DNA from: Clostridia bacterium
GTDB taxonomy: Bacteria > Bacillota > Clostridia > Oscillospirales > CAG-382
DNA length: 64,000 bases
Direction of reading: 5' to 3'
Assembly: GCA_017399965.1 (NCBI GenBank)
Contig: JAFQAP010000019.1
Coordinates: 543 to 64,542 of the forward strand
The notes beneath the pieces were generated by a model. It was given only the letters and a program-made list of their open reading frames with translations, did no database searches and was not told where the DNA came from. A program made the translations under genes and the position numbers. Shown here in pieces: positions 4,968-32,418 of the stretch (positions are counted from its first letter, which is position 1; the number at the start of each line of letters is the position of its first letter).

Positions 4968-6230
4968 GTGTTTATAGATAAAGTCGATATTTACGTAAAG
5001 GCAGGTAACGGCGGCAACGGCTGTGTTTCCTTCCGCCGCGAAAAATACGTTGCCAAGGGCGGACCTGACGGCGGCGACGGCGGCAAGGGCGGAGACGTTA
5101 TATTTGTTGTGGACGAGGGCGCAAACACCCTTCTTGCTTTTAAAAACAAAAGAAAATATATTGCTGAAAACGGCAAGGACGGTCAAAACAAAAAGTTTTT
5201 CGGCGCTTCCGGAGCAGACCTTTACATTTCCGTCCCCAGAGGTACCGTTATACGTGATAAAGACTCCGGCAGAATAATAAAGGATATGTCGGATGATCAG
5301 CCTTTTTTATTTCTTAAGGGAGGCAAAGGCGGTTGGGGCAACACCCATTTTGCAACCGCCACAAGACAGGTTCCTCATTTTGCAAAAAGCGGTATTACCG
5401 GCGGGGAAGCCAACCTTACCCTTGAACTTAAAACTATTGCCGACGTAGGTCTGGCAGGCTATCCCAACGTAGGTAAATCCACTTTTCTTTCCGTGGTTTC
5501 CGCAGCAAGACCAAAAATAGCAAATTATCATTTTACTACTCTTCAGCCTAACTTAGGTGTTGTAAATAACCACGGCGATACTTTTGTTATTGCCGATATC
5601 CCCGGGCTTATAGAGGGCGCGGGTGAAGGCAGAGGCTTGGGCCACGATTTTTTGCGCCATATCGAGCGCTGCCGTCTTATACTTCATATATTTGATATTT
5701 CTTCCTCCGAGCGTGAAGATCCGCTGGAGGATATAAAGCGTATTAACGGGGAGCTTGAGATATTCTCTCCCGAGCTGGCAACACGCCCCCAGATACTCGC
5801 CGCAAACAAGTGCGACGTAGGCTATGACGAAGAAGTGCTTGAAAAAATAAAAGAATACGCATTTGAACAGGGATATTCTCTGTATCTCATCTCCGCCGCC
5901 ACCCGTGAAGGCGTGCAGGAGCTTTTAAACGGCATAAGCGCCGCATTGCGTGAGCTTCCTCCCGTAAAGGTTTACGAAGCGGAGGAGGCGGAGGAAGCAC
6001 TCCCCGAAGAAAGAACCACCGAAGTTACCAAGGATGGCGACGTGTTCGTGGTTACCGGCGAGTGGCTTAAGAAGGTTTGCGGCAGCGTTAATTTTGATGA
6101 TTACGAATCTCTTGCATACTTCCAGCGCGTGCTGAGAAACGGCGGAGTTATAGACGCTTTGGAAAAAGCGGGCGTGCAAGAGGGCGATACCGTGGATATC
6201 TACGGTATTGAATTCGATTTCGTATATTAA
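4968..6230 (+). CDS. obg: GTPase Obg/CgtA
   Basis: GTG at 4968 with AGAGGTG upstream. VFIDKVDIYVKAGNGGNGCVSFRREKY..GGPDGGDGGKGG is the Obg fold. G-domain GYPNVGKST and a C-terminal TGS-like domain are present. Confidence 0.9.
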   Translation: MFIDKVDIYVKAGNGGNGCVSFRREKYVAKGGPDGGDGGKGGDVIFVVDEGANTLLAFKNKRKYIAENGKDGQNKKFFGASGADLYISVPRGTVIRDKDSGRIIKDMSDDQPFLFLKGGKGGWGNTHFATATRQVPHFAKSGITGGEANLTLELKTIADVGLAGYPNVGKSTFLSVVSAARPKIANYHFTTLQPNLGVVNNHGDTFVIADIPGLIEGAGEGRGLGHDFLRHIERCRLILHIFDISSSEREDPLEDIKRINGELEIFSPELATRPQILAANKCDVGYDEEVLEKIKEYAFEQGYSLYLISAATREGVQELLNGISAALRELPPVKVYEAEEAEEALPEERTTEVTKDGDVFVVTGEWLKKVCGSVNFDDYESLAYFQRVLRNGGVIDALEKAGVQEGDTVDIYGIEFDFVY

Positions 6231-9095: not shown

Positions 9096-9229
9096 ATGTA
9101 ACCTCCGTTATCGCCAGTTTCGCCTTTGTATTACAAAGGGATAGGGCATAGCCCATACCCCTACAATACCGAATATATTATATCATAGATTAGCAGAGAA
9201 AGCAAGAGTTATATTCCGATTTCGTCGGA

Positions 9230-9376
9230 GTGATATGATCGCGTGTGCGATCGTGATATGGAAGCCTTACGGCTTCAGTGATATTTTATTCGCCTCCAAA
9301 CTCGCGTAGCAAATACCACTCGGCGATAGCCGAATATCACTGCGAAACAATAGAACTCGCCGCAGGCGAATAAAAC
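9230..9376. repeat. dyad-symmetric heptamer plus mini-hairpin array (block A, motif GTGATAT)
   Basis: GTGATAT at 9230, 9253 and 9278, with inverted ATATCAC at 9334 (variant ATACCAC at 9314). The intervals are hairpins GATCGC-GTGT-GCGATC, GAAGCC-TTAC-GGCTTC, TCGGC-GATA-GCCGA and TCGCC-GCA-GGCGA. Confidence 0.75.
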
Positions 9377-9439: not shown

Positions 9440-10147
9440 TTAAAAGGGCTTTAATTCTCTGTAAAAGCTTGCCAAAGCGGCGTTTTGATACGGGGTAAGC
9501 CATATAGAACCGACACCGAAGGAAAGCACGGTAAGAAGTATCCAGCCGATAAAGCTGAACTGCAGGCAGAAAAGTCTCCAGCGGTTGCCGTACATCATTT
9601 CTTTGGACATTCGCAGCGCTTCTTTTGCGGAAACGGTAGGATCATCCGCAAGGATATAGGGCACCATTGCGTAATTATATGAAATAATTATTCCCGGAAC
9701 GATAAACAGCATATAGCCGATAAGTTCAAAGGCAAAACGCAGTAAATACGCCACGATAATGGATTTTGCGTTACGGAACTGGGAAAACAGATCTCTGAAC
9801 GCAGGTTCTTCGTAATCTATAAGCTTAAGGTTAAACGAACAGTATCCCGCCTGAATTATGCTTGAAAACATTCCGTATATACTGCCGGCTATAAACGCTA
9901 TTGCGAATACTGCAGCAAAAACCAAAAGTACAGTTACAATAATTTTTACAGCTTCCTCGTTGCTTACGTTGATGTATCCGCTTTCAAACGAAATGGAAAA
10001 AGGAAAACTAAAGCTTGCTCCGCCGATTAACGCGGACGCTACAAGACCCGTTCCTATGGCAAGCCCCCATCTTCCGCTCAACGCTCCGCGGGCTGCTTCT
10101 CTGTGCTCGGATGCTGTCATATGTGTCATATGCTTAACTCCTTTCAA
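9440..10147 (-). CDS. DUF975-family integral membrane protein
   Basis: 235 aa. The N-terminal region ...AREALSGRWGLAIG... and 5-6 hydrophobic spans are typical of DUF975. The true start may be one of the downstream Met codons. Confidence 0.6.
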   Translation of the reverse strand: MKGVKHMTHMTASEHREAARGALSGRWGLAIGTGLVASALIGGASFSFPFSISFESGYINVSNEEAVKIIVTVLLVFAAVFAIAFIAGSIYGMFSSIIQAGYCSFNLKLIDYEEPAFRDLFSQFRNAKSIIVAYLLRFAFELIGYMLFIVPGIIISYNYAMVPYILADDPTVSAKEALRMSKEMMYGNRWRLFCLQFSFIGWILLTVLSFGVGSIWLTPYQNAALASFYRELKPF

Positions 10148-28336: not shown

Positions 28337-29336
28337 AATATTTGCACTCCTCCTTGCCGCGGTCATTCTGCTTTCGGCATGTGTTTCCGGCGGCGGTGAG
28401 GAAAGCAGTACTCCCGATAATTCGGTTCCTCCCGTTGAAAACAGCGCTCCCGTGGGCGAAAACAGTACTCCTGCAGAAAACAGTAACCCTGCAGAAAACA
28501 GTAACCCTGCAGAAACCAGCACTCCCGCAGGTGAGACAAGTAATCCCGCGGAAACCAGCAAGCCCGAAGAAAGCAAGCCCGAAGAAAGCAAGCCTGAGGA
28601 AAGCAAGCCCCAGGAAGAAAGCCGTCCCGAAAACAACAGCGGCATTTACTCCGGTCAGAGTATGGATACCCACGGTATGGACAGAAAGGAACTGGAGGAT
28701 TTTCTGGAAGATTCTCTGTTCGTCGGCGATTCCGTAACCGATGGCTTTAAGCTTTACGTAAACAACTACGGCAATATGCCTTACGTAAACTTTTTCTCTG
28801 CAGCTTCTTACGGCTATATCAACGCTTGTAAGGACAAAGCCACTTCCTCTTTGCACCCCAAGATAGGCGGTGAACGCAAATATATCTGGGAAGCGGTTGA
28901 ATATTACGAAGCAAAGCGTGTGTTTATCAATTTCGGGCTTAACGATTTCGGCTATATAACCGATACCAAGCTTGTCGAGTGTATGGACACCATCTGCAAC
29001 AATATAAAGGAAGTTTCTCCCGAAACAGAGATAGTATTCCTTTCCTGCGGCTTCTTTACCAAGAGCGCCAGGGATCAGGGCAAGGGCGTGGATAACGACC
29101 GTGTCCGCAACAAAAACGAAGTGGTATTGAACTACTGCGATGAAAACGGATACGATTTTATCGACGTTTCCTGGGTATATGCAGATGCAAACGGATATCT
29201 TAAGAGCGAGTATTCTTACGATAACTATTGCCATATGAAGTATGATAAATACGATTTCTGGGAAGAGATCCTTATGGCGTATGCCGCAGATAAACTGCTT
29301 AACCAGTACGAAAATATCGACACGATGTTAAAATGA
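28317..29336 (+). CDS. lipoprotein with low-complexity P/E/S/N linker and SGNH-type esterase domain
   Basis: Lipobox LLSAC after MKIMKTKIFALLLAAVI (start at 28317 or 28326). The linker reads ...ENSNPAENSNPAETS...KPEESKPEESKPEESKP. The SGNH block is FVGDSVTDG. It overlaps the end of the upstream gene. Confidence 0.6.
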   Translation: MKIMKTKIFALLLAAVILLSACVSGGGEESSTPDNSVPPVENSAPVGENSTPAENSNPAENSNPAETSTPAGETSNPAETSKPEESKPEESKPEESKPQEESRPENNSGIYSGQSMDTHGMDRKELEDFLEDSLFVGDSVTDGFKLYVNNYGNMPYVNFFSAASYGYINACKDKATSSLHPKIGGERKYIWEAVEYYEAKRVFINFGLNDFGYITDTKLVECMDTICNNIKEVSPETEIVFLSCGFFTKSARDQGKGVDNDRVRNKNEVVLNYCDENGYDFIDVSWVYADANGYLKSEYSYDNYCHMKYDKYDFWEEILMAYAADKLLNQYENIDTMLK

Positions 29337-30883: not shown

Positions 30884-30885
30884 AA

Positions 30886-30911
30886 AAACACCGCCGAAGA
30901 CGGTGTTTTTG
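30886..30911 (+). terminator. rho-independent terminator
   Basis: AACACCG-CCGAAGA-CGGTGTT followed by TTTT. Confidence 0.65.
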
Positions 30912-30913
30912 CG

Positions 30914-31080
30914 GTGAAGTTTGGGCTTGTGCCCAAGTGAAGTTATGCTGTGCATAGTGAAGTTTTGTGCTGTCGCACAAAGTGAAGTTAAGTTTGCCGC
31001 TTCGCCGTAAGGCGAAACTTCACTGCCGCAGGCAACTTCACTGCCATAGGCAACTTCACTTGTCCGTAAGGGCAAACTTA
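30914..31080. repeat. dyad-symmetric octamer plus mini-hairpin array (block B, motif GTGAAGTT)
   Basis: GTGAAGTT at 30914, 30937, 30957 and 30982. Inverted AACTTCAC at 31016, 31034 and 31052, with a degenerate copy near 31076. Every interval is a different small hairpin. Confidence 0.8.
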
Positions 31081-31086
31081 GTTCCG

Positions 31087-31131
31087 CCAAAACAAAAACA
31101 CCCCACATAAAGTGGAGTGTTTTGTTTTGGG
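31087..31131 (-). terminator. terminator-like long hairpin downstream of the lipoprotein gene
   Basis: CCAAAACAAAACACTCCAC-loop-GTGGGGTGTTTTTGTTTTGG on the minus strand, with a T-rich 3-prime arm and tail. Confidence 0.5.
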
Positions 31132-31155: not shown

Positions 31156-31224
31156 TGCACCCCCTTTTGAGGTTAGGGGGTGCAAAGTCATTTTAGGGGG
31201 TGCATATTTGAGTCAGGGGGTGCA
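31156..31224. repeat. AGGGGGTGCA direct repeats x3 at exact 20-nt period, plus one inverted copy
   Basis: AGGGGGTGCA at 31175, 31195 and 31215. The reverse complement TGCACCCCCT is at 31156-31165. Confidence 0.85.
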
Positions 31225-31231
31225 ACCGCAC

Positions 31232-31945
31232 TTAATCACCCATCGGTTTAAAAACTGGCGCTCCATTTTCGACAACTACTGAGCCAATAACACCCGTTGC
31301 AGTATAAGACAAATCTGCAAGGTTATCGCCGTTGACTTCTATGTTTGCGCTGTAGACTTGATAATAAATGGGAAGGTCTTGGGGATCTTTTGACGAAAAC
31401 GAGGGCGAAACAGCCGCTACAAACAGATCTACTGAAGGATTGTCGGTAGTTGAAGTATCATAAATAACAATGGATTCCTTTGTGGTTGTATTAAAAACGG
31501 ATATTATAGAACGGTGTAATCCCGAACCCCATGAAGAAGCAACCAATAAATCGAGATTCCCATTTTCGTCATAATCCCAAGGTACGGCATTTACAAAACC
31601 GTAGCCACCAAAGGACTCACAAATAGAATATACCTCACCATCAATTAGTGCAAGCGAGATGCAGGAATCGCTGAACTTAAAAATCTTGATATCTGTCTGG
31701 GCGGCAACAGAAAGCGGGGTGACATTGTAGCAATGTTCCTTATCAAGCGTCATTCCGGTAGACAAACCACCCAATTCCACCTCGCCAATAATTGACATAA
31801 ATTCATCTACGGAATCCTTAGTGCATGATGTAGTCATATAGTCGACATTGCTTTCGTTTTTATCTGAATTATCGGTGTTTGTTTGACAAGCCGTCAAAGA
31901 AATCAATACAATTCCTGTTAGAAGCAAGCAGAATAGGCGTTTCAT
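31232..31945 (-). CDS. hypothetical lipoprotein (FG-GAP/VCBS-like beta-propeller flavour)
   Basis: Start at Met15 of the ORF (MKRLFCLLLTGIVLISLTAC, lipobox). WDYDENGNLDLLVASSWGSG resembles an FG-GAP repeat. Family not firmly recognised. Confidence 0.5.
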   Translation of the reverse strand: MKRLFCLLLTGIVLISLTACQTNTDNSDKNESNVDYMTTSCTKDSVDEFMSIIGEVELGGLSTGMTLDKEHCYNVTPLSVAAQTDIKIFKFSDSCISLALIDGEVYSICESFGGYGFVNAVPWDYDENGNLDLLVASSWGSGLHRSIISVFNTTTKESIVIYDTSTTDNPSVDLFVAAVSPSFSSKDPQDLPIYYQVYSANIEVNGDNLADLSYTATGVIGSVVVENGAPVFKPMGD

Positions 31946-32010: not shown

Positions 32011-32098
32011 TTAACGATTATCGGCTACAATTTAACGATTGCCTCTATAAATCAACGATTATTGTTATGATTTAACGATTATCTGTCTTTTAACGATT
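32011..32098. repeat. five direct TTAACGATT repeats at 18-21 nt period, upstream of the lipoprotein gene
   Basis: TTAACGATT at 32011, 32032, 32072 and 32090, with TCAACGATT at 32052. Confidence 0.85.
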
Positions 32099-32106
32099 TG
32101 AAGTGA

Positions 32107-32284
32107 GTGAAATATTTGCCTTGCGGCAAATGTGAAATAATTTACTCCGTAAATTGTGAAATTTGATGCTTTCGCATCAAGTGAAATGAAATAAATCCTC
32201 TCACGCCCGCAGGCATTTCACATTGCGAAGCAATATTTCACACGCGAAGCGTATTTCACAAATCCCGCAAGGGATTTATTTCGT
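32107..32284. repeat. dyad-symmetric heptamer plus mini-hairpin array (block C, motif GTGAAAT)
   Basis: GTGAAAT at 32107, 32132, 32156 and 32181. Inverted ATTTCAC at 32215, 32235 and 32253, with ATTTCGT at 32278. The intervals are distinct hairpins. Confidence 0.85.
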
Positions 32285-32286
32285 TG

Positions 32287-32325
32287 AAAAAGACCTATGC
32301 TTTGTATCAAAGCATAGGTCTTTTT
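32287..32325 (-). terminator. terminator immediately 3-prime of tRNA-Ser(GGA) (bidirectional hairpin)
   Basis: AAAAAGACCTATGCTTT-GTA-TCAAAGCATAGGTCTTTTT is a long perfect stem with A/T runs on both sides. Confidence 0.75.
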
Positions 32326-32326
32326 C

Positions 32327-32418
32327 TGGCGGAAAGAGAGGGATTCGAACCCTCGGAACGGTATTAGCGTTCACACGATTTCCAGTCGTGCGCCTTAGAC
32401 CAGCTCAGCCATCTTTCC
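32327..32418 (-). tRNA. tRNA-Ser (anticodon GGA), class II, CCA encoded
   Basis: Minus-strand read begins GGAAAGATGGCTGAGCTGGTCTAAGGCGCACGACTGGAAATCGTGTGAACGCTAATACCGTTCC and ends GAGGGTTCGAATCCCTCTCTTTCCGCCA. Acceptor GGAAAGA/TCTTTCC, anticodon stem CACGA/TCGTG with loop CTGGAAA, variable arm GAACG/CGTTC. Confidence 0.9.

Follow-up and report, generated by a model that had tools for sequence, protein, structure and literature searches.

A Gut-1-like hairpin array as one copy of a dispersed, oriented repeat at gene and tRNA 3' ends in gut Clostridia

Block B is an intergenic array of small hairpins in a 64,000-nucleotide (nt) stretch of DNA from a Clostridia bacterium of the Oscillospirales (assembly GCA_017399965.1, contig JAFQAP010000019.1, positions 543 to 64,542), the whole of which is called the window here. 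It is a single copy of a non-coding repeat, structured and oriented, that is dispersed among gut Clostridia, and it very probably belongs, as a diverged member, to the Gut-1 RNA family. Elements of this repeat family, to which blocks A and C of the window also belong, sit at the 3' ends of transcription units such as protein-coding genes and transfer RNA (tRNA) genes.

Identity of block B

The linker that recurs through block B, GTGAAGTT, begins at 30914, 30937, 30957 and 30982 on the plus strand, and its complement, AACTTCAC, begins at 31016, 31034 and 31052, with a degenerate copy, AACTTAG, at 31076-31082. All seven intervals between linkers are hairpins with stems of 4-7 base pairs (bp), with a G-T pair in one of these stems, TTGTCC/GGGCAA. 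Three nucleotides, gcg, separate the terminator hairpin of the gene for a flavin adenine dinucleotide (FAD) protein from the start of the block. The linkers, the hairpins and the short gap had all been listed in a reading made from the letters alone (the sequence-only reading), and each of them is reproduced. On the two strands of the window the 8-mer occurs seven times, always inside block B and within 146 nt, against an expectation of 1.49 +/- 1.26, and seven or more copies appear in 0 of 100 dinucleotide shuffles. The fold energies of the two strands are -77.5 and -70.7 kcal/mol, with z = -5.5 for the plus strand and -5.9 for the minus strand. The view that block B is a genuine, non-random architecture with kinship to block C is supported.

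Gut-1 was described from 43 examples, all in human-gut metagenomes, as a 77-nt motif for which no function was proposed, and its rating there was that of a certain RNA without a cis-regulatory role (Weinberg et al. 2010, PMC2864571). Its Rfam entry, RF01706, has a covariance model of 77 positions and a gathering cut-off of 50 bits. At a permissive threshold, the halves of block B rank directly after block C as Gut-1 matches and each spans the complete model, at 43.4 bits (30912-30993, plus strand) and 40.7 bits (31012-31084, minus strand), with E values of 8e-7 and 4e-6 in a 1.6-kb search. These scores lie below the cut-off, and the sole systematic difference from the model is the linker, which is GUGAAGUU in block B instead of GUGAAAU. 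Four copies with the GTGAAGTT-type linker exceed the cut-off (L204, two in L156, and L203; 50.6-53.4 bits), and block C contains two convergent Gut-1 copies at the curated Rfam thresholds (Table 1). With an nhmmer profile of oriented GTGAAGTT-type elements, the minus strand of block B reaches 155.8 bits and its plus strand 56.5 bits, and the same profile matches the canonical block C with an E value of 3.3e-5. Block B shares with the accepted members, in addition to sequence homology, three successive short hairpins with covarying stems, set between 7-8 nt linkers of the GUGAAAU type. The published alignment (PMC2864571) has the layout of block B with GUGAUAU and GUGAAAU linkers, and its flanks contain inverted partner arrays and an upstream tRNA with a terminator. 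In the searchable literature, no follow-up on Gut-1, RF01706 or the motif strings was found after the 2010 paper, the remaining matches being polymerase chain reaction (PCR) primers.

Read literally, the Rfam label "Gene; sRNA" would make block B two convergent, free-standing small RNA (sRNA) genes, one for each half. Each half does fit the covariance model in convergent orientation, and the published rating of Gut-1 as an RNA without a cis-regulatory role agrees with this. However, a site scan found no promoter-like site upstream of either half of block B, and the elements abut stop codons, terminators and tRNA 3' ends. Furthermore, there are hundreds of diverged copies where a single conserved locus would be expected, and the loops and wobble pairs favor the strand opposite to that of the Rfam model in each half (see below). 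Free-standing sRNA genes are therefore very unlikely.

Architecture of the full element

The element is oriented and about 170-230 nt long. It starts with a strong hairpin, P0, which is followed by NAA-CTAAGTTTGCCC (the X segment, with the degenerate linker R0) and by hairpin hp1 (TTGCCC-loop-GGGCAA). The first half then consists of GTGAAGTT with hairpin hpA, GTGAAGTT with hpB, and a third GTGAAGTT. In the center, hairpin hpZ (TCGCC-loop-GGCGA) and the letters AGTG lead to X' (GGGCAAACTT), which is complementary to the 5' end of the element. The second half is formed by AACTTCAC with hpC, AACTTCAC with hpD, AACTTCAC with hpE, and a final AACTTCAC. Stem length is about 3 bp before the center and about 5 bp after it. 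The linkers measure 7-8 nt and are uniform inside one element but variable between elements.

Block B is a minus-strand copy of this layout (Table 1). The orientation of its linkers flips within 30990-31015, and its left-hand hairpins are longer than its right-hand ones. The sequence-only reading had taken the block for a plain dyad, and this description does not hold. It had overlooked that AAGTTTGCC (30990-30998) is complementary to GGCAAACTT (31071-31079), and among 48 exact dyads the X motif, CTAAGTTTGCC, is confined to one side in 44. Of the 44 elements that were ascertained by their linkers only, 35 have X and X' segments that match as complements with no more than one mismatch, and this complementarity covaries across five linker types; L152 and L217 share the covarying pair AAGTTCGCC/GGCGAACTT. 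Two alternative partners are thus available to X, namely X' and the 3' arm of hp1, and each of these pairings is conserved. A candidate reading of X and X' as inversion sites of an invertible segment was rejected: all-direct arrays turned out to be right halves on their own or unrelated repeats, and gave no evidence of inversion.

The 48 nt upstream of X fold with a median of -17.4 kcal/mol, compared with -7.8 kcal/mol for control windows, and P0 is followed by a T-tract, as tested for canonical terminators, in only 8 of 80 elements. P0 often coincides with the terminator of the upstream gene; the hairpin is strong, but in many elements it is no canonical terminator. In the window, P0 of block C is the tRNA-Ser terminator (32286-32326). 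A terminator scan of block B found none inside the block and one on each flank (30892-30905 on the plus strand, 31123-31095 on the minus strand), and the block does not have the G+C-rich hairpins with T/U tracts of an intrinsic-terminator array. Block A has decayed: one side retains three linkers and the opposite side a single clear copy, X and X' are kept, and a terminator-like hairpin follows.

Table 1 Features of blocks A, B and C in the window, with other copies of the same layout.
Feature	Position	Strand	Linker	X/X'	Description and basis
FAD-protein gene terminator	30884-30910				Bidirectional intrinsic terminator (AAAAACACCG...CGGTGTTTTT) bordering the 3' end of block B; inverted-repeat and terminator scan
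Block B, distal (3') half	30914-30989	minus	AACTTCAC		Four linkers and three 5-6 bp hairpins (30921-30936, 30945-30955, 30965-30980)
Block B, central X' segment	30990-30998	minus			GGCAAACTT on the minus strand, complementary to 5' X; 10-nt inverted repeat, 100% complementary
Block B, central hairpin hpZ	31001-31016	minus			TTCGCC-GTAA-GGCGAA; position conserved family-wide (TCGCC-loop-GGCGA)
Block B, proximal (5') half	31016-31059	minus	GTGAAGTT		Two mini-hairpins of 3-4 bp (31024-31034, 31042-31052) among three minus-strand linkers
Block B, hp1 and 5' X segment	31060-31081	minus			hp1 (31060-31075) overlapping X, CTAAGTTTGCCC (31070-31081); includes degenerate linker R0
Block B, upstream hairpin P0	31087-31131				Bidirectional terminator of the lipoprotein gene; inverted-repeat and terminator scan, and end of L246 homology in the P0 loop
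Block C	32105-32286	minus	GTGAAAT	GAAATAAATCC/GGATTTATTTC	Canonical Gut-1-type element directly past the tRNA-Ser terminator; Rfam 50.3 bits (32105-32192, plus) and 79.1 bits (32210-32286, minus)
tRNA-Ser(GGA)	32327-32418	minus			Transcription unit bearing block C
Block A	9228-9372	minus	GTGATAT	TTTATTCGCC/GGCGAATAAA	Degenerate element of the same family and layout
L193			TCGATAT	GATATAAATCC/GGATTTATATC	Same layout
L195			GCTAAAT	TAAATTCGCC/GGCGAATTTA	Same layout
L029				GAAATCCACCC/GGGTGGATTTC	GC-rich copy, same layout

Recurrence in genomes and metagenomes

When one genome per species was scanned for GTGAAGTT in three spaced copies, at least 120 loci were obtained, and a profile search identified at least 78 of them as bona fide elements. 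All 78 lie in Clostridia metagenome-assembled genomes (MAGs) from animal guts, including Oscillospiraceae, Acutalibacteraceae, Christensenellaceae, Candidatus Scatosoma, Ruminococcus, Faecousia and others. About 42 loci were set aside as unrelated repeats in Acidobacteria, Bacteroidales, Butyrivibrio and others. Among the matches listed, GTGAAGTT precedes AACTTCAC in 59 clusters and follows it in 4. A further 57 loci were retrieved from metagenome contigs by X...X' alone, that is, with no selection for the linker. The sequence-only reading had staked the significance of block B on its architecture occurring elsewhere, and the architecture does recur in these Clostridia loci and metagenome contigs. 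It had also called the hairpins unique, which is not borne out, since hairpin sequences are common to members of subfamilies; the combination of hairpins in block B is seen at this locus only.

Up to 4 elements occur within 8 kb, and differing linker types may stand side by side in one intergenic region. The window itself has three elements with three linker variants, and in one MAG (L195, 1792-2111 and 4380-4660) the linker types ATGAATT, GCTAAAT and GTGAAGTT are found side by side in two neighboring intergenic regions. One subfamily (L153, L176, L232, L231, L235, L240 and L214) carries an extra conserved stretch about 200 nt 3' of the element, which contains a terminator-like hairpin and a perfect palindrome, GTTTGACTAGTCAAAC, has an end resembling an inverted P0 region, and gives no Rfam match. 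Members are 80-95% alike with flanking genes that differ between genomes, and by eye they have ends of about 22 nt resembling terminal inverted repeats (TIRs) about 400 nt apart. This subfamily may represent a larger composite or mobile unit.

A scan of viral contigs for three copies of GTGAART gave chiefly chance or tandem-repeat matches, among which only L029, L081 and L082 looked real. Two of these are IMG/VR contigs classed as viral: L029 has a GC-rich copy with the full layout at 4990-5190, and L082 has a tRNA, a terminator and a Gut-1 element in succession at 9700-9870. These contigs may be prophage or host DNA. Metagenome contigs L003, L004 and L247 end within or beside repeat blocks, as do many contigs with homologues of the lipoprotein encoded next to block B, which suggests that Gut-1-type elements break short-read assemblies.

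Stems, loops and linkers

Among 56 parsed elements, 6 distinct stems occur at hp1 and 13-35 at each of the other six hairpin positions. Watson-Crick pairing is 96-99% per hairpin position, compared with 46-71% when arms are swapped between elements, and amounts to about 98% overall. Consistently, the block C orthologs of the window and of L248 differ by compensatory changes, for example AATTTAC/GTAAATT versus AATTCAC/GTGAATT, indicating that stem pairing is maintained.

The loops are closed by C-G and, on the strand that reads AACTTCAC, are GAA, GCA, GTA, GATA, GACA, GCAA and GTAA in both halves. In block B, the loops read outward from the center are ACAA, ACA and GACA on the left (minus strand) and GTAA, GCA, ATA and GTAA on the right. 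The sequence-only reading had described such outward-read loops as GNRA-type. Its strand preference stands but the strict GNRA assignment does not, because the loops of the family are c-GNA-g or c-GNNA-g; RNA-specific UNCG or GNRA signatures are not evident. Each half looks optimized on the strand that is read outward from the center.

When blocks A, B and C, L193 and L195 are compared, a change of linker type in one half is matched in the other, and the usual linker count is four on the left (R0 included) and four on the right. In the minimum-free-energy folds of both strands, GUGAAGUU pairs with AACUUCAC, with the hairpins branching off. Such features would be expected if the element were one long RNA or a single DNA strand, in which each GTGAAGTT pairs with its mirrored AACTTCAC to form a ladder of four-way junctions. 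However, the 57 metagenome elements retrieved by X...X' contain no rung-level linker compensation. Hybrid elements combine GTGAAGTT on the left with four copies of AATATCAC on the right (L258, L262) or have four copies of AACATCAC on the right (L261, L265), L274, L254 and L293 are mosaics of linkers, and separate arrays consist of a right half only (L194) or an expanded left half (L202). These hybrids, mosaics and single-half arrays indicate that strict linker-linker pairing is not needed and that the halves are separable modules, making a ladder improbable. The mosaics suggest sequence exchange within an element, for example by template switching. The presence of several linker types in one genome (three in the window, three in L195) argues against recognition by one sequence-specific binding protein.

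Position relative to transcription units

Genomic context was counted for elements with both flanks callable, in the genome set and in the independent metagenome set. The genome set gave 21 convergent, 16 tandem co-directional, 5 tandem opposed and 3 divergent placements, and the metagenome set gave 8, 12, 4 and 0, respectively. When the two sets are pooled, 29 elements (42%) lie between convergent genes, 37 between tandem genes and 3 (4%) between divergent genes, and the tandem elements are co-directional with the flanking genes in 28 cases versus opposed in 9. The distance from the upstream stop codon to X is usually less than 60 nt. In L156, L164, L188 and L217, the element takes up all the space from a stop codon to the following ribosome-binding site, and so these copies must be transcribed. 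Eight elements have a tRNA gene within 150 nt, and every one of them lies 33-43 nt downstream of that gene and points the same way; block C, its L248 ortholog, L082 and one published seed are arranged likewise.

The co-directional bias, the copies inside operons and the tight coupling to terminators and tRNA genes favor a structured element at the 3' ends of transcription units, akin to repetitive extragenic palindromes (REPs) and bacterial interspersed mosaic elements (BIMEs), which would act as a buffer reached by read-through. Only transcription reading through the end of a gene or tRNA would reach the element, and the transcribed element would then fold, in single-stranded form, into a very stable body of multiple hairpins. 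This body could buffer or insulate the end of the transcript by blocking exonucleases or further read-through, and the two inverted halves would offer a similar structure to polymerases arriving from either side. By analogy with known elements, this reading as a whole is tentatively preferred and comes close to an even chance without reaching it. Its functional part is more doubtful, and the element may act as RNA or as DNA.

Several points weigh against a read-through buffer. Blocks B and C both sit between strong terminators in the window, and so little transcription is expected to reach them. The orientation bias could reflect the direction of replication rather than that of transcription. 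Wobble pairs are rare, with 15 G-T and 9 A-C among about 1300 pairs, and an RNA under long selection would not usually have a G-U content as low as about 1-2%. Counted in the forward frame, G-T and A-C pairs number 3 and 7 in the first half and 12 and 2 in the second (p = 0.013 for the second half), and the c-GNA-g and c-GNNA-g loops, which are classic extra-stable DNA mini-hairpin loops, likewise lie on opposite strands in the two halves. Optimization of the outward strand opposes the strand modeled in Rfam and cannot be accounted for by one transcript. A simple block to exonucleases gives no account of why linkers are uniform inside an element, and the function is assigned by analogy only.

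The near-absence of wobble pairs and the optimization of the two halves on opposite strands keep alive an alternative in which the element acts as DNA and its RNA is irrelevant. Its palindromes may extrude as mini-hairpins or cruciforms, or may bind a topoisomerase or nucleoid protein, as gyrase does at BIMEs. The dyad layout, the enrichment between convergent genes and past tRNA genes, and the placement of the window copy between two terminators are all consistent with such a role, and the mosaic and hybrid linkers suggest that templates were switched within the element in DNA. Against it, the elements tend to be co-directional with flanking genes (28 versus 9) and are so in all eight cases after tRNAs, and some copies are certainly within operon transcripts. 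In addition, stems of 3 bp are marginal for extrusion, and the variation of linker types in one genome speaks against a single sequence-specific binding protein. Action at the DNA level alone is thus unlikely. This alternative, the read-through buffer and the selfish origin discussed below are not mutually exclusive.

A more speculative proposal, which we consider quite unlikely, is that Gut-1 elements are not small RNAs but bidirectional "post-terminator" modules, in which, since each half is optimized on its outward strand in loop type and wobble tolerance, a polymerase leaking through a terminator from either side would yield the hairpin array once it has passed the center. The array, made as RNA or exposed on the non-template DNA strand, may display G-free AACUUCAC linkers between its hairpins. 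It could then serve as a rut-like loading platform for a termination or RNA-decay factor, or provide extrudable DNA mini-hairpins, and the uniformity of the linkers would be kept by template switching within the element.

History of the locus

The FAD-protein gene next to block B has relatives that differ in their repeat content. In L246, whose FAD protein is 92% identical to that of the window, block B is present, and the cores of the two copies (L246 6085-6283 and window 30914-31111) are identical at 168 of 169 positions (99.4%), whereas the FAD coding sequence is 88.2% and the intervening terminator 69% identical. The homology ends in the loop of P0, beyond which L246 has unrelated genes typical of a mobile island (DUF6809, HTH_17 and a UvrD-like helicase). 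Block B is absent after the FAD terminator in L247 (FAD protein 91%) and L249 (77%). L248 (79%) has the FAD gene, tRNA-Ser, its terminator and an ortholog of block C, without block B and without the lipoprotein gene. Because the block C orthologs diverge, the near-identity of block B beside flanks diverged by 12% indicates recent transfer or insertion rather than constraint. These comparisons point to block B being a patchily distributed, recently shared segment of 200 nt.

The patchy distribution among close relatives keeps a selfish origin in play, in which the element is a miniature mobile element or its relic, similar to a transposable element of the miniature inverted-repeat type (MITE) or a REPIN, possibly moved as single-stranded DNA and tolerated at gene 3' ends with no host function. 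The contrast in identity between the core of block B and its flanks fits this idea, as do the TIR-like ends and unrelated flanking genes of the L153/L176 subfamily and the multicopy occurrence of the elements. However, block B has neither TIRs nor a target-site duplication, and in aligned copies of the family the homology begins with the P0 hairpin, without duplication of a flank. Within one genome the copies have diverged, with no sign of recent bursts. Moreover, tRNA-Ser and block C have been kept together in relatives with only 79% FAD identity, with compensatory stem changes, which indicates selection. No gene for a transposase of the IS200/IS605 type, to which the REP-associated tyrosine transposases (RAYTs) belong, gave a tblastn match in 2.26 Mb of fetched DNA (window and loci), a weak negative obtained with one IS200 TnpA query. 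A purely selfish element is thus rather unlikely.

The sequence-only reading had suggested that blocks B and C bracket the lipoprotein gene (31232-31945) and mark the boundaries of its insertion, which a comparison of relatives with and without this gene would reveal. The two blocks do flank the gene, the outer edge of block B shows a sharp discontinuity in identity with the break in homology in the adjacent hairpin loop, and the lipoprotein family lies in differing neighborhoods between genomes, so that recombination sites of a lipoprotein cassette might be envisaged. However, block C stays with tRNA-Ser in L248 where the gene is missing, and L246 has block B without an adjoining lipoprotein gene. 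Homologues with 74-92% identity in four other genomes (L308, L310, L311 and L312) lie in four different neighborhoods, with no Gut-1-like element on either side, and there is no integrase or recombinase gene beside blocks B and C in the window. Block C belongs to the 3' end of tRNA-Ser, and B and C are not matched cassette boundaries; a role as insertion boundaries is extremely unlikely.

The genes neighboring block B encode a DUF4434 protein, a GDSL lipase, the FAD protein and a nucleotidyl transferase. The 237-residue lipoprotein family has no Pfam match, many homologues are on contigs of only 0.8-1.7 kb, and in the window and in all four other genomes (gene at 3501 in L308, L310, L311 and L312) a co-directional tRNA or transfer-messenger RNA (tmRNA) gene precedes it at a distance of a few hundred bases to about 1 kb. 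The lipoprotein-gene promoter has TTAACGATT upstream of it in five spaced copies, at 32011-32098; in an unrelated neighborhood, four copies of this repeat, as AATCGTT, precede a homologue with 92% identity (L308 3348-3433; L309 2319-2404). This repeat looks like an operator or iteron of the lipoprotein gene and not of the Gut-1 blocks. Between the lipoprotein stop codon and the terminator, at 31156-31224, there are three direct copies of AGGGGGTGCA with an exact spacing of 20 nt and one inverted copy, and this motif is found at this locus only among all fetched DNA. Neither AGGGGGTGCA nor TTAACGATT recurs with Gut-1 elements. In-frame tandem repeats with periods of 18 nt and 15 nt lie at 28437-28510 and 28557-28610 near the 5' end of the GDSL-lipase-like gene.

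Comparison with known systems

Like CRISPR arrays, block B alternates short direct repeats with unique intervals. However, CRISPR repeats are 23-50 nt long and keep one orientation, whereas those of block B are 7-8 nt long, flip in orientation, and are separated by self-complementary intervals of 8-18 nt; block B is not a CRISPR array, and there are no cas genes nearby in the window. Integron attC sites are single palindromes of 55-140 nt beside intI, and block B has instead many separate mini-hairpins and no RYYYAAC/GTTRRRY cores. The BOX elements of Streptococcus pneumoniae and the Neisseria intergenic mosaic elements (NIMEs, arrays of dRS3 and RS) are modular intergenic mosaics that combine end modules with repeated units and are predicted to form long stem-loops. 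The succession of an end module, repeated internal units and a complementary end module is similar to that described here, and in NIMEs a short repeat also alternates with variable segments. Their modules are, however, 45-150 nt long and conserved in sequence, and no 8-nt linker alternates with tiny unique hairpins. The rut site of lambda tR1 (rutA-boxB-rutB) is a structured factor-loading site. By pure analogy, the single-stranded, C-containing and G-free AACUUCAC segments between hairpins just past a gene end may be likened to it, although the upstream complementary copies of GUGAAGUU could sequester these linkers.

The nearest working analogy is with the REP and BIME arrays of Enterobacteria and Pseudomonas, which are likewise high-copy extragenic palindromes in alternating orientation, found at gene 3' ends, in convergent intergenic regions and inside operons. 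Roles in mRNA stability, termination and supercoiling have been proposed for them (Nunvar et al. 2010, PMC2817692; Di Nocera et al. 2013, PMC3733652), and REPs are conserved units of 20-40 bp that are tagged by GTAG or CGTC and linked to RAYT transposases (PMC3733652). In contrast, the conserved part of Gut-1-type elements is a non-palindromic linker of 7-8 nt, and the palindromes differ within one element. In block B, all hairpins differ, measure 11-16 nt, and have no GTAG or CGTC tag.

The Rfam entry for Gut-1 dates from 2010 and presents it as an orphan "sRNA", with human-gut metagenomes as its only source. Whereas the published motif is a stand-alone RNA of 77 nt, the window and its relatives present it as one half of a larger oriented element with P0, X/X' and a second, inverted half. 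Its hosts are named Clostridia MAGs from many animal guts, in which it is abundant among Oscillospiraceae-like lineages and tied to the 3' ends of genes and tRNAs. The full element, the linker variants, the host range among Clostridia MAGs, the coupling to tRNAs and terminators, and the strand signals are new with respect to the Rfam entry. For the annotation of this genome, block B is an ordinary feature, one more copy of the family. If the present reading is correct, the Rfam family would be reclassified as a REP/BIME-like genome feature of major gut anaerobes, and the frequent breaks of metagenome contigs at these sites would be explained.

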